Shown here piece after piece: positions 50,933-56,745 of a stretch of 64,000 nucleotides of DNA. A program made the translations under genes and the position numbers. Location of the stretch: assembly GCA_010093995.1 (NCBI GenBank), contig ML992508.1:344506-408505 (forward strand), in the 5' to 3' direction. Origin of the DNA: Elsinoe ampelina (Eukaryota). Under the pieces are notes generated by a model. The model was not told the origin of the DNA. It saw only the letters and a list, made by a program, of their open reading frames with translations, and searched no databases. Each line of letters begins with the position of its first letter. Positions within the stretch are counted from its first letter, which is position 1.

Positions 50933-53357
50933 ATGACAGCACTACAGCGTCCAATGGAGATGGCGTTGCGGTCGACTACGCCATCATTGCTGGCTCGTAG
51001 TACAGCAGACTTTACAAGACCTGTCTCACAGGTGACTGACAACTTCTTCACCGAGTTCGGAGATGATGAGAGTGACGCCGAGCAGAACTCGCTTCGGTCA
51101 AGTAACCAATCTGTGAGCATCAGTGGTGTACAAGGGTGATATGTTTTCTAATTCCCACCAGATTGACGACGCTCGAAGACGCAGTGACACGACCATCTCA
51201 TCCTATGAGGTGCCAACGCCGCAGACCGAGCAGGACCAGTTCGAGATTCTCATCAAGCCTGTCCAAGGTCCGCAAGGTCCACATCTGTTTCGAGCCTCGA
51301 CATCATCAGCCGAATTCGTCTTCGACTATGCATTGCAAATGTCGCCAGTGGAGCTCAAGAATGAGCCTCCACCAAGGCCAGATACAGCAAAGTCGCATCG
51401 TCCAGCAACACGTATGTCCAGAAGGTCGTTGCCACCAATCTACGCCAACATTCCCGGCATGCCGGCAAACATTCACGACTGGTCTTCCGAAAGCGTCATT
51501 GACTGGATGTACAGTACTGGTGTAGACTTTGGCATCATCCAGAGCTTTAGAAACAACGACATCACTGGTACGGTCTTGGTCGACATGAAGTTTGAAGACC
51601 TCAAGGACCTTGGCATTCCATCATTCGGCAAGCGACACGAACTGTGGAGCAACATTGTTGCCCTCAAAGGTGGAGAAGCAGGCCCGAGTCCAGTGACTAC
51701 ACCCTTTCAAGACATAACAAGTCCCTCTACCGAGTTCAGATCGGACTCAACTTCGCCACTTAGCGCATGCTCAGCGACGGAAATGGAAGACCTCACGCCT
51801 ATCACAGAACAAGCACCGAGGAAGAGAAGAGGCAGGAAGCACCGGGCGAAGCAACAGTTCAACCAGCAAGACATCGATATGTCCGCCATGTCATTCATCG
51901 CCATTGAGGAGCACATTCCCAAGGAGCACAAGTGCAGCAAGGGCCAGGACTGTGAGCATTGGAGGAAGTGGAGCCGTCGCGTCGAACGGTCCAAGAAGTT
52001 CAATGACAGGTTCAAGAAGGGTTCATTCCCAAGCAGTCCTGGCGAAGGTGGCACAATCATCATTCACGGAGACCCTGGCAATGCAGCCACCGCACCAAAT
52101 CTGGCACCAAGAGTAAGAAAAGCCATGAGCAGTCGACCAACTTCTGAAGGGATCCCATCAGTAGTCGCCTCCTCGGACATCCTTGGACCAGATCAGCTAC
52201 CTGAGATCTACCTTCACCAGGACATGCTTCAGACTTTGGACGAACGAGATCCACTCGAGAACGTCAAGCACTTTCTCCATCTCCAACACATGTCAAGTCC
52301 AATGGAGGCACCCGAAGCTCCCGAGTACGACACCTTTGATGAGCCAAAGTACGAGATCTTCCCCACCACGTATCACCAGCCGCCGTACGTGCCACACCAG
52401 AACCCAGCTGCCCCAGTTCAGCTTCCACGTAACACACCCGCACCACTCGAGAACCTCAAGCACCTCCCGAAGCTCGCCATCCCCCGCGCTGCCACTGCCA
52501 GTCCCACCTACCTCCGACGAGCCAACACGATCCGCTCCCCCGTATCAGCCATCACCCCATCCCGCAGCCAAGCCGCCACCCCCATCGCCCTCCCCCGCGC
52601 CTCCACCCCAGCATCCGAAATGGACCTCCCCATCACAGCCCCCAACCTCGGCCCCATCGCACGCGACACCTCCCAATCCGTGCCCCCCAACATGCAATAC
52701 CGCGACCCCATCACCTCCCCCCTCCACCGCTCCAACTCCCGCCGTCCCTCCTTCGCCCTGCCCCCTCTCCGCGAGGAGCCCCTCGGCGCCTTCTCCCCCC
52801 TCAGCCCCACCAACGCCCTCTCGCGCCACCCCACCGTCCGCCGCGCCTCGGACGAAACCACCCTCCCTTCGGACCTCGCCCGCTCCAAAGCCCTCTACGG
52901 CGACGCCTGCACCCGCTCAGGCTGGATGAAAAAGCGACGCACCCGTCTCCTGCGCCACGAGTGGTCGGACGCGCACTTCCGCCTGACGGGCACGCAGCTG
53001 GCCGTGCACGGCGACGAGAAGCAGACTTCGCGGCCCAAGGACACGATCGATGTGGATCGGTACACGGTGAATGCTTCGTCCGGGGCGAGCAATGGGAAGT
53101 TGTCGGCGGCGTTGAAGGCGATGCGGATTAGGGAGGAGAAGGGGCCCGGGGATGGGACGGCGTTTGCGTTTCAGCTTGTGCCGGAAGGGAGTCCGGAGAG
53201 GAAGTTGCGGAAGGGCAAGGAGGGGGAGAAGGGCCACGGGAAGACGCATCATTTTGCTGTGGGGGATAGGGAGGATAGGGTCGAGTGGATGAGGGAGTTG
53301 ATGTTGGCCAAGGCGAAGGGGAAGAGTATGAAGGGGTGGGAGGTGAAGGCTGGGTAG
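50933..53357 (+). CDS. SAM- and PH-domain protein (Boi/Pob1-related), 2 exons
   Basis: SAM domain WSSESVIDWM..FRNNDITGTVLVDMKFEDLKDLGIPSFGKRHELW; PH domain SGWMKKRRTRLLRHEWSDAHFRLTG...HHFAV..REDRVEWMRELMLAK. Intron at ~51113-51161. Confidence 0.85.
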
Positions 53358-53517
53358 ATGAGTGAGGGGATTTGCGAAGCAACGAGGGATTGGATGGGAA
53401 CGGGAGTGCGCAGGTCGCGCTTGGGTTTTCGGTTTGGTTATGGTTGAGCGGATACCCTGTTTTCTCGGTGCATCTCTAGGTCTATAGCTGTTCATGAATG
53501 TGGATGACAGATATCAA

Positions 53518-54198
53518 TTACTGTTCCCTGGGCTGGACACCCTGCTTGATGAACTTTTCGTGGACTTCCTTGTAGACTTCTTCGGGTGACTTGGTGGCGC
53601 CGACCTTGACTACCCTGCCGTCCTTCTCAAACATGTCCACGACGGGCATGCTTGTCTCGACAAAGGTCTTGAATCGCTTCCTGATGCTCTCAATGTTGTC
53701 GTCGTCCCTGCCGCTTGTCTTGCCTCGCTCCAAGAGTCTCTTCTCCATCTCCTCCTCAGGGCAGTCGAAGAACAAAGTGAACTTGCTCTTCACCACTGCC
53801 TCTTCGAACTTGGTCGCCTGATCGAGCTTCCTTGGGAACCCATCGATGAGGAACATCCTGTTGCCGTCCTTGTCCATCTTCTCCTTCATTGCGTTCTCAA
53901 GCAGTTGAATCGTCACTTCCATCGGCACGATTGTTCCCTCCTTAATATATGTCCTGATCATGTCGCCGAATTGCGAGCCAGGACGGTCTTGCTCTGCTCG
54001 TAGCAGATCACCAGCAGAGAGATGAGCGAAGCCATAGTCTCGGACAAGGTTGGCGCACTGCGTGCCCTTTCCTGCACCGGGTCCACCAAGAACGAAGATG
54101 ACGAGAGCTTGATCAGGACCTGTACCTGGAGTGAAGAGGGGCGCCGTGCGAGTTGCAGCAGGAAAGTCGTACTTGATGGGCTTATCGGTGGGCGCCAT
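53518..54198 (-). CDS. URA6: UMP-CMP (uridylate) kinase
   Basis: FVLGGPGAGKGTQC, HLSAGDLLRAEQ, GTIVPMEVT, FLIDGFPR and RGKTSGRDDDNIESIRKRF. Confidence 0.95.
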   Translation of the reverse strand: MAPTDKPIKYDFPAATRTAPLFTPGTGPDQALVIFVLGGPGAGKGTQCANLVRDYGFAHLSAGDLLRAEQDRPGSQFGDMIRTYIKEGTIVPMEVTIQLLENAMKEKMDKDGNRMFLIDGFPRKLDQATKFEEAVVKSKFTLFFDCPEEEMEKRLLERGKTSGRDDDNIESIRKRFKTFVETSMPVVDMFEKDGRVVKVGATKSPEEVYKEVHEKFIKQGVQPREQ

Positions 54199-54207
54199 TG
54201 TGGTAGA

Positions 54208-54528
54208 TCAGCCCTCTCTGTATTTGCGCTTGTCTACGTCGCTAACGTCGAGGAGAGGAGGAGGCTTGGGTCCACGGCCACTGCCTTGACCTTCACGAGA
54301 TTTGGCGAGGCGATAGAAGAGGAAGGAACCGGTGAAGAAGATAATGACCAGGGGAAGGAGGGGCAGCTGGTCGGAATTGGACTTGCGGCGTGGAGGTGGA
54401 GGAGGTGTAACTGTGTTGCTCGTCGGCTGCTTAGTGTCGTCGAGTAAGCGGCGGGAGATGGAGAAGTAACGAGTGTTGCGTCGAAGGGTAGGAGCGATGA
54501 ATCGTGTTGCTAATCTTTGGGCGAGCAT
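54208..54528 (-). CDS. Small ORF with mitochondrial presequence and a single TM helix, in frame with URA6
   Basis: MLAQRLATRFIAPTLRRNTRYFSISRRLL (Arg-rich, no acidic residues, R-x-F-S site) and TM LPLLPLVIIFFTGSFLFYRL. Its TGA lies 9 nt before the URA6 ATG. Confidence 0.7.
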   Translation of the reverse strand: MLAQRLATRFIAPTLRRNTRYFSISRRLLDDTKQPTSNTVTPPPPPRRKSNSDQLPLLPLVIIFFTGSFLFYRLAKSREGQGSGRGPKPPPLLDVSDVDKRKYREG

Positions 54529-54983
54529 TGTGAACGGTGAGCAACTTGTTTGGGAGCCCGAGATGCAGCTCTTGCCCAAAAAAGCTCAAGGGCGGAAGCT
54601 CCCGAGCAGAGTGGGCCAGACGTCATGGACATTTGATTCTCGAACGGATTTTCTTCCATGAACAAGTCAAATTATACATTTCCGACCACGTGGAGTCTCA
54701 GTCTACTACAGCGTCATTTGATCAAAATGCCATGAGAATGAGAATTCCAACGGAGGTGTTGGTGGTGGTCGACAAGAGTCTGTCAAGCGGAATGCTCTAT
54801 CTGAAGCAACATCCAAGCGAGCCAATGTCAGACTGCCAATTCCGGTGTCACAACGGATCAGGCAACCGGTCATGGTGTACTGTAGGTAAGATGGCCTGAC
54901 CGTCAATATAAAGAGAATCATCGTCCTCGAAGCAATAGGTGTTTCCTTATCTTCTACGTATCCACCGCCAAATAGTATTAGAG

Positions 54984-56745
54984 ATGCTACTGACCAGAAG
55001 TCTGTTGCTGGTTGGAGCGATCCCATCACTGATCAATGGGCAAAGCAATCAGCAGATTGTTTTGCAGGATATCCACCATGATACACCCGAGACGAGCGAC
55101 TTCGACATTGTTCAAGCATTGAAAGATAGATCTATTGACGTCTCAACTGTTCCTGTCCTGGCGAAGCTGACAGAAGAGACGAAGAGCTCCAAAGAGACTG
55201 CCTGTGCTGCGGCTGTAGGTCAACAATGCACAGCTCCGACCAGAAGACTGACATGGTATAGTGCTCAGCCCTAGATTTCATGTATGCTAAAAATGAGATC
55301 ATCACTGCATCATCGCCTGATATCGAAACTTTTGTCAAAAGATTCTGGTCAAATAATCAGGCAGAGACGCTTCCAGCATGTGTCTTCAAACCAGTTGATG
55401 CTGAAGCAGTATCTGTGGTGGTCTTGCTGTCCAGACTCACGCAATGCCCTTTTGCAGTCAAAAGTGGAGGTCATGCTTCTTTCCCAGGTGCCTCCAACAT
55501 TCAAGGAGGCATCACGGTCTCGTTCGAAAGGATGAAGTCATTCCAAGTATCCGAAGACAAATCGACTGTCACAATCGAGCCCGGCTGGAAATGGGGACCG
55601 CTGTACCGCGAGCTGGGTAGTCATGACTTGACCGTCGTGGGTGGTAGAGTAGCGTCTGTCGGTGTAGGAGGCTTGATTACGGGTGGTAAGCAATCCCCAA
55701 CCCACCACCAACAACCATACTAATCACAACAGGCGGCATCTCTTTCTTTTCCAACCTCCATGGCTGGGCATGCGACAATATCGCTTCTCTCACCCTCGTC
55801 ACCTCCACCGGCGCCATCATCACCGTCTCAGCCACCTCCAATCCCACCCTCTTCTCCGCGCTCCGCGGCGCCGGCCCCAACCTCGGCATCGTCACCTCCT
55901 TCACTCTCCGCACCATCCCTCTCCCTGCGGGCCAAATCTGGGGCGGCACCCGCACTTACCTCCCCGACACGTACCCCTCCCTCATCCACGCCTTCACCAC
56001 CCTCTCTTCCTCCTCCACCCTCGACCCCAACGCCGGCGCCTGGATCTCCTTCGTCCGGTACAACGGCACCGACATCGCCCTCGCGGAGCTCTACTACGCC
56101 CGACCCGACGGCCACAACGCCACCATCTGGCAGAACTTTGACGCCGTGCCCTCGATCGCCTCCACGACAGAAAACAGACACATCGCCGACTACGCCGCCA
56201 AAGTCGAAGCCGACGCCCCACCCGGCCACCGACAGTACTTCTACGTCATGACGGTCAAGAACTCGCACGAGATGAACACGGCAGCCATGCAGCTCTACTA
56301 CGACGCCATCGCCCAAGTAGAGCAATACGAAGGCGGCTTCGGGGCTTTCGTCCTGCAGAGCATCTCCACCGAACAACTGCGCCACATGAAGCGGGACGGG
56401 GGCAACACGCTCGGCCTCGACGCCGAGGACGAAGCGCTCACGCTCATCCTGCTCAACCCTCGATGGAGCAACAAGGAGGACGACGAGGGCATGTACCGCT
56501 TCGGCAGCGATTTGTTCAAGCGCATCAAGGAGGCGGCCGTGGAGAGGGGGTGTGAGAAGGGCTATCTGTATATGAATTACGCGAGCGAGTTTCAGGATGT
56601 GGTGGCGAGTTATGGGAGCGCGGGGGAGAGGTTGAGGGAGGTGGCGAGGGAGTGGGATCCGCGGGGGGTGTGGCAGAGGTTGATGCCGGGGTATTTCAAG
56701 CTGGATGGGGCGCCGACGCGGGGGACGGGGATGTTCAGCTTTTAA
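54984..56745 (+). CDS. Secreted FAD-linked oxidoreductase (BBE-like/VAO family), 3 exons
   Basis: Signal peptide, FWSNNQAETLPACVFKP, FAVKSGGHASFPGASNIQGG (covalent-FAD His), VGGRVASVGVGGLITG|GGISFFS..HGWACDNI, LRGAGPNLGIVT and YMNYA..QDV..YG..L..VAREWDP.GVWQ. Confidence 0.9.

Follow-up and report, generated by a model that had tools for sequence, protein, structure and literature searches.

A small conserved cistron directly ahead of the URA6-type kinase of Elsinoe ampelina, probably on one transcription unit

On the minus strand of contig ML992508.1 of the plant-pathogenic fungus Elsinoe ampelina (assembly GCA_010093995.1), a short open reading frame (ORF), hereafter ORF1, is followed 9 nucleotides (nt) further on and in the same reading frame by ORF2, which encodes a uridylate kinase of the URA6 type. 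All positions below refer to the window, i.e., the whole stretch of 64,000 nt analysed (positions 344,506 to 408,505 of the contig, forward strand), unless a related locus is named. The two ORFs form a real and conserved two-cistron unit of a rare, operon-like kind, which is a new fungal instance of an already known kind of system. As for its mode of expression, the locus is probably transcribed as a single unit carrying two distinct cistrons, where URA6 is reached by scanning across ORF1, and is neither a split nor a fused gene. An initial annotation, made from the letters of the sequence, had described a 106-codon ORF with a presequence and one transmembrane (TM) helix ending in TGA, then the triplets TCT ACC ACA and the URA6 ATG in a common frame, and had derived three products from the locus, namely a cytosolic kinase, a mitochondrial membrane-anchored kinase arising by splicing or readthrough, and possibly a mitochondrial microprotein made on its own from a messenger RNA (mRNA) with two cistrons. 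The layout is read directly in the sequence and the features of ORF1 are those of its family (Table 1). Among the products, the free microprotein beside cytosolic URA6 on a bicistronic mRNA, formerly given as a possibility, is now the part best supported, considering a conserved protein family, purifying selection, the kinase always next to ORF1 and unspliced RNA contigs; the membrane-anchored kinase is left unsupported.

The tandem layout extends beyond the window. In a metagenome scan with an alignment (A3), 12 related loci were collected, and ORF1 closes with a stop in every one of them. The kinase comes next on the same strand, 2-116 nt past the ORF1 stop, in all nine loci extending far enough, and two others (L001 and L002) are truncated 18 codons into an apparent kinase start. 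The spacer between the cistrons, 9 nt long in the window, measures 3, 3, 3, 6 and 2 nt in an Aureobasidium-like group and 36, 45, 72 and 116 nt in the others. The ORF1 stop of the relatives can be TGA, TAA or TAG, followed at the +4 position by T, G, A, A, G, C and A. ORF1 and the kinase share a reading frame in five of six lineages (binomial p = 13/729 = 0.018), with in-frame spacers of 3, 6, 9, 36, 45 and 72 nt, and are out of frame in L010 and L012. L009 and L010 are close to one another, with synonymous divergence (dS) of 0.04-0.07, yet their spacers differ by 1 nt, which places the kinase in a different frame relative to ORF1; as such, ORF1 and URA6 need not be read as one. Independent support for the 2-nt spacer of L010 comes from a public protein model of Aureobasidium pullulans (P0077). 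As a side observation, the bases following the stop are alike in three lineages, i.e., the window (54199-54207, TCTACCACA), L003 (2729-2737) and L008 (1429-1437) (ACATCCACA, ACAACCACT), despite the kinase ATG lying at 9 nt in the window and at 36 and 45 nt in the other two; these bases could represent a conserved element, or else what is left of an earlier start context.

The same adjacency can be found, in another guise, among public protein models. Fused "URA6" models of 300-348 amino acids (aa) occur in seven clusters of Dothideomycetes, with Elsinoe australis, Elasticomyces, Delitschia, Aureobasidium, Zopfia and Neocucurbitaria as the taxa concerned, and show that ORF1 and URA6 are adjacent across the class. 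The sole fused model compared with DNA is P0077, a "UMP-CMP kinase-like" protein of 336 aa in which ORF1 is joined to an out-of-frame stretch. Against the DNA of L010 (2627-2640), this model skips 14 nt (GTCCTGCCTCCTAG, GT...AG) to switch frame and is an annotation artefact, because 14 nt is too short for an intron.

A further mark of the unit lies in the absence of start codons. From the ORF1 start to the URA6 ATG, no ATG occurs in any frame in all eight full loci, that is over 327 nt in the window and 356-437 nt in the seven related loci (7/7), compared with 8-20 ATG per 660-714 nt in the kinase ORFs. Upon synonymous resampling, the probability of having no out-of-frame ATG amounted to 0.377, 0.258, 0.058, 0.893, 0.471 and 0.090 in the six lineages, with a product of about 2e-4 for lineages that are of common ancestry. 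The encoded proteins tell the same: across the 35 members of the ORF1 family, from the column of a conserved QLP motif to the end, there are 3 methionines (Met) in 1,850 residues, the last N-terminal Met being located 47-70 residues ahead of the QLP column in 35/35 members, compared with 9 Met in the 226 residues of the window kinase. Internal AUGs matter to scanning ribosomal subunits and not to elongating ribosomes. Considering the lack of ATG in 8/8 loci together with the near-absence of Met, scanning across ORF1 is the most likely route by which ribosomes come to the URA6 start.

RNA evidence was drawn from contigs of four runs (X1, X2, X3 and X6; three studies) placed on positions 52500-55800, where the four runs were accepted as RNA solely on the spliced introns of the divergently oriented neighbour gene. 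Two 47-nt GT..AG introns of this neighbour are spliced out, the one at 55215-55261 in 4/4 runs and the one at 55685-55731 in 3/4, which identifies the runs as RNA in which splicing can be seen. Each of the four has a contig that extends from ORF1 over the TGA and the spacer into URA6, with 0 mismatches, 0 gaps and no joint. With the TGA intact in RNA contigs, the codon is no assembly error and the main RNA retains the stop. A sequencing error at this place, a doubt raised in the initial annotation, was considered and rejected, since the four RNA runs show 0 other letters and 0 gaps there; the Elsinoe batatas relative of ORF1 (P0002) terminates at the same residue. The bridging contigs suggest one mRNA molecule bearing both ORFs; contigs drop rare isoforms, and their depths were left out of any ranking of ORF1 versus URA6. 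Upstream, the contigs of X2 and X3 (one study) end at 54518 and that of X6 (another study) at 54515, without a loose end; in X1, the contig spanning the ORFs ends at 54490 and a separate contig (depth 2.5) covers 54523-54794. Contig ends so near to the first start codon, AUG1, would be no more than weakly suggestive of a very short leader, with no DNA run available to compare.

The same contigs bear on the 66-nt phase-0 intron by which the initial annotation had proposed to remove both the stop and the URA6 ATG. The letters are present, but the signals are poor, with a GTTAGC donor, a branch-like CTGAT 27 nt before the end and an AAG acceptor; the two verified neighbour introns have the donors GTAGGT and GTAAGC, the branch sites CTGAC and CTAAT close to the end and the acceptors TAG and CAG. 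In-frame GT..AG pairs able to remove the stop number 33 within the ORF1-URA6 stretch, and the presence of the candidate intron is thus no more than expected by chance. No joint 54181-54246 was found in the contigs of the four RNA runs, which do display the neighbour introns.

ORF1 belongs to a protein family of its own. A HMMER (phmmer) search among 1.84 billion representatives at a threshold of E<=1e-3 returned 34 relatives of 105-172 aa, all of them (34/34) stand-alone proteins. The first 30 residues comprise 7 arginine or lysine (R/K) and 1 aspartate or glutamate (D/E) in the window ORF1, compared with a median of 6 R/K and 0 D/E across the 35 family members; every member (35/35) has one 19-residue window with a mean Kyte-Doolittle hydropathy of at least 1.58, followed by a C-terminal tail of 31 residues in the window ORF1 and of 23-45 across the family. 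The alignment of the window ORF1 with its 34 relatives (A2) displays a common basic N-terminus with R.FS.S and a conserved block, QLPV.PLVAIF..GS..FY.L.KSREGQG. Mitochondrial presequences are cleaved at a R-x-(F/Y/L)-(S/A) pattern, and R-Y-F-S-I-S in ORF1 would fit it. Searched against Pfam, the 35 members matched 0 families and ORF1 alone gave only a chance-level match (0.063), and a profile search of the PDB with the family returned 0 matches.

Selection on ORF1 was estimated from 10 pairs among five related metagenome loci, with a ratio of nonsynonymous to synonymous substitution rates (dN/dS) of 0.08-0.17 and dS up to 0.68; the adjoining kinase of the same loci gave 0.00-0.09 at similar dS. 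On these comparisons, ORF1 is a conserved stand-alone protein under purifying selection. That the upstream ORF might be unconserved, as the initial annotation had envisaged, is at odds with its 34 relatives and dN/dS. Two other candidate explanations, i.e., a decayed N-terminal extension of the kinase and a merely regulatory upstream ORF, are both ruled out by the dN/dS values together with the conservation of the family. With respect to the ORF1 start, the frame in L009 and L010 (2123-2341) is open for 73 codons further upstream. Several ATGs, in two frames, lie within this extension, and a gene caller would there choose the longer start, which is probably wrong. The longer-start pattern is also seen in the family members of 140-172 aa.

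The second cistron matches the adenylate kinase family ADK of Pfam (PF00406) with an E-value of 4e-46 and 157 bits for a cut-off of 26.8, over profile positions 1-150 of 151. It is 99% identical to a protein of E. batatas (P0007) and 88% identical to a protein of Sphaceloma murrayae, both named uridylate kinase. From these matches, ORF2 is a UMP-CMP (uridylate) kinase of the URA6 type, within the adenylate kinase family. The ORF1 relative of E. batatas is 89-90% identical to the window ORF1. The locus tags of the two E. batatas proteins, KVT40_001896 for P0002 and KVT40_001744 for P0007, stand 152 apart, although the contig of origin has an equal length for both. In run X1, a two-way bubble was observed at about 54037-54096 (contig depths of 803 and 32) with one letter differing in the minor path at 54066, which is probably a polymorphism inside URA6.

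Taken as a mechanism, ORF1 would give its own small protein, imported into mitochondria and anchored there by a single helix, and ORF2 would give cytosolic URA6. Since the ORFs are 9 nt apart, the gap would hold no URA6 promoter and the body of ORF1 would serve as the URA6 leader. Subunits that do not start at AUG1 would scan some 330 nt of AUG-free RNA and initiate at the URA6 AUG (AUG2). AUG1 could be missed in two ways: the mRNA would begin at AUG1 or a very short distance ahead of it (leaky scanning), or some transcripts would start just downstream of it; a leader at AUG1 that is very short or absent would suit the former. In the window, the start contexts are ttCACAATGc for AUG1 and acCACAATGg for AUG2, identical from -4 to -1 (CACA) and with C versus G at +4; among the six lineages, G at +4 is found at AUG1 in none and at AUG2 in three.

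Several points weigh against this scanning account. A contig running over two ORFs is no proof of one mRNA molecule, and 5' ends are not visible in contigs. The start context offers little help, as that of AUG1 is not weak in the window and has A at -3 in 5/6 lineages, and there is no clear sign of leakiness through context. Taken by itself, the ATG-free stretch of the window does not reach significance when codons are preserved (codon shuffle, P(0) = 0.53; mononucleotide shuffle, 0.053), and the case for it therefore rests on recurrence across lineages with shared ancestry. The excess of in-frame loci (5/6 lineages) is not predicted by scanning. P0003, a protein model of E. australis, is a 328-aa fusion without visible frame jump and nine codons shorter, in which ...G-T-S-A-T-M aligns to ...G-stop-S-T-T-M of the window. 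As to the ORF1 product, a mitochondrial and membrane-anchored location is a prediction, and its Atlas look-alikes, all small single-pass mitochondrial subunits, score under 0.9 and are leads only.

The in-frame excess and P0003 are the arguments for a first alternative, where low-level readthrough of the TGA adds a third product, i.e., a 336-residue protein made of presequence, TM helix and URA6 in the mitochondrial inner membrane. Frame and open spacer go together in 5/6 lineages (p = 0.018 for the frame alone), and the fused model comes from a congener of E. ampelina. Yet all three stop codons occur, their +4 bases vary and no context is shared, L010 and L012 are out of frame, and in L003 and L008 the spacer is free of stops in each of the three frames, so that openness there is nothing special. 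Folding 106 nt from 5 nt before the stop gave z = 0.30, i.e., no stable structure past the stop, and the frame count comes from a sample of only six lineages. Readthrough is thus considered unlikely. The mitochondrial kinase of the initial annotation, by either of its two routes, runs into the variable stop context, the two out-of-frame loci and the absence of structure on the one side, and into the poor signals and the absence of a joint on the other. A combined view, where an ancient ascomycete mRNA gives a Min9-like mitochondrial microprotein, URA6 by skipping of AUG1 and a rare readthrough fusion anchoring the kinase in the mitochondrial inner membrane, is a doubtful one and carries a low probability; were it true, the fusion would account both for the in-frame state of 5/6 lineages and for a possible stop loss in one Elsinoe species.

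A second alternative places the URA6 start sites deep inside ORF1; ORF1 would then be carried by a long mRNA and URA6 by a distinct, shorter one that overlaps it. Overlapping transcription units are frequent in compact fungal genomes, and overlapping transcripts would be indistinguishable in contigs. Against it, the AUG desert spans the whole of ORF1 in 8/8 loci and the family is nearly without Met, neither of which is needed by a short leader, and internal start sites are regarded as distinctly unlikely. The third alternative is termination-reinitiation, where ORF1 is translated up to the TGA and ribosomes restart at the URA6 AUG 9 nt on. Reinitiation is usually inefficient after ORFs of more than 100 codons, and the AUG desert would be left unexplained as elongating ribosomes ignore internal AUGs. 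The spacers of 2-9 nt in the window and the Aureobasidium-like loci would suit such coupling, those of 36-116 nt in four lineages would not. A precedent is the UAAUG junction of hypovirus CHV1, and coupling of this sort in a fungal virus is described in PMC2699510. Altogether, reinitiation appears highly unlikely. Finally, a fusion of ORF1 to URA6 through an alternatively spliced intron that includes the stop (54246-54181 or a different pair), as in MOCS1, can point to a frame-keeping GT..AG pair and to the fused public models in seven Dothideomycetes clusters but is extremely improbable given the lack of a joint in four RNA runs of three studies, the poor signals, the 33 such pairs arising by chance and the only DNA-checked fused model, P0077, being an artefact with a 14-nt skip. 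The words "isoform B" in the name of P0003 were considered as a sign of splicing and discarded, the 224-aa short form P0009 being named identically.

The two-cistron unit with proposed scanning across ORF1 has a close parallel in the nuclear bicistrons of green algae, for which PMC11892635 describes few AUG before ORF2 and short leaders, with mutagenesis supporting leaky scanning. The likeness covers two conserved ORFs per transcript, AUG scarcity before ORF2, short spacers and an ORF1 that in many cases encodes a small membrane protein of an organelle, with TOM22 and OST4 as test cases (PMC11892635). The present case differs in being from an ascomycete, in the ORF1 start context, which is not weak in the window, in ORFs that are mostly in frame and in resting on sequence and RNA contigs. 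For small mitochondrial proteins, the Drosophila pair Sloth1/Sloth2 offers another example of a product from a bicistronic transcript, described in PMC9681215 as bicistronic mitochondrial peptides with small paralogous products; here, the second product is instead a metabolic enzyme. Two further systems resemble the locus by layout. The model behind the initial annotation is MOCS1, an animal locus the two ORFs of which either serve as a bicistron or are joined through splicing (bioRxiv 10.1101/429183); the common point is one locus with two ORFs, and the difference is that no splice joint is seen here in the contigs of the four RNA runs. Glycolytic enzymes of fungi are reported to be dually targeted, with peroxisomes as the second destination, by stop-codon readthrough or alternative splicing (Freitag 2012; Stiebler 2014). 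As in ORF1-URA6, a stop codon stands there between a targeting signal and an in-frame enzyme, whereas the signal is C-terminal and the leaky UGA-CUA conserved in those cases, compared with a TGA-TCT that is not conserved here. Literature searches retrieved no paper on this ORF1-URA6 locus or on a bicistronic URA6.

In Saccharomyces cerevisiae, YKL023C-A appears in PMC5494306 as MIN9, a protein of 75 aa and 8.5 kDa belonging to the high-confidence mitochondrial proteome, assigned to matrix or inner membrane and with one Met in the sequence as printed; one paper names the gene as uncharacterised. From the systematic names, MIN9 and URA6 (YKL024C) would be neighbours on the same strand, MIN9 being upstream. 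Compared by eye with the printed sequence, MIN9 is built like ORF1, its N-terminus being basic and containing R-F-Y-S-S, with a single hydrophobic stretch and then a short tail; it differs in its 75 aa, the phmmer search with ORF1 having returned no protein below 105 aa. ORF1 is possibly the counterpart of yeast Min9, by this resemblance and the position beside URA6. If the yeast MIN9-URA6 pair is the same unit, the arrangement would be directly testable in the best fungal model and would be older than the split between budding yeasts and filamentous ascomycetes.

Fungal nuclear genes are treated as monocistronic, and gene finders omit a small ORF such as ORF1 or weld it to URA6. The practical lesson for annotation is that the seven clusters of fused "URA6" models now in public databases should be checked. 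With the layout described, an ORF of more than 100 codons would double as the AUG-free leader of an essential enzyme of the pyrimidine pathway, and the outputs of a nucleotide kinase and of an uncharacterised membrane protein, predicted to be mitochondrial, would be tied to each other. Conserved across several Dothideomycete genera of fused models, the unit makes a natural test case for ribosomes serving two cistrons. The ORF1 family, now of 35 members, possibly gives a context for Min9-like proteins.

Table 1. Features of the ORF1-URA6 locus, in window positions.
Feature	Position	Strand	Basis or remark
ORF1, 106 codons + TGA	54528-54208	-	ORF list; conserved unnamed family with presequence, one TM helix and short C-terminal tail
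ORF1 start ATG (AUG1)	54528-54526	-	
ORF1 R-Y-F-S-I-S, residues 20-25	54454-54471	-	window copy of the family R.FS.S (alignment A2 consensus)
ORF1 predicted TM helix, residues 57-75	54304-54360	-	best 19-residue Kyte-Doolittle window, score 1.89
ORF1 stop TGA, next base T	54210-54208	-	also present in RNA contigs of 4 runs
Spacer TCTACCACA (TCT ACC ACA), 9 nt, ORF1 stop to URA6 ATG	54207-54199	-	
ORF2, URA6-type UMP-CMP (uridylate) kinase, 226 codons + stop, ATG at 54198	53518-54198	-	
URA6 P-loop GGPGAGKG	54064-54087	-	from translation
ATG-free stretch, any frame, 327 nt (ORF1 body + stop + spacer)	54199-54525	-	
Candidate 66-nt intron of the initial annotation, unsupported	54246-54181	-	
Intergenic region common to ORF1 and divergent neighbour (ATG 54984, +)	54529-54983		

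The intergenic region upstream of ORF1, shared with the divergent neighbour, would be the only place for a promoter of the ORF1-URA6 unit. A TATAAT-like box and a CACGTG are present in it at 54668-54695 (minus strand), some 140-165 nt upstream of AUG1; a scan for promoters and terminators of bacterial type has no bearing on a fungus. The divergent neighbour itself has a signal-peptide-like N-terminus, its first exon has no Pfam match, and its RNA contigs begin at 54946-54969. On the other side, the ORF of the convergent neighbour (51141-53357, plus strand) encodes 738 aa, including SAM and PH domains, and its stop is 160 nt from the URA6 stop. In X2 and X3, RNA contigs extend across URA6 and this neighbour alike, and the 3' ends of the two genes probably overlap.

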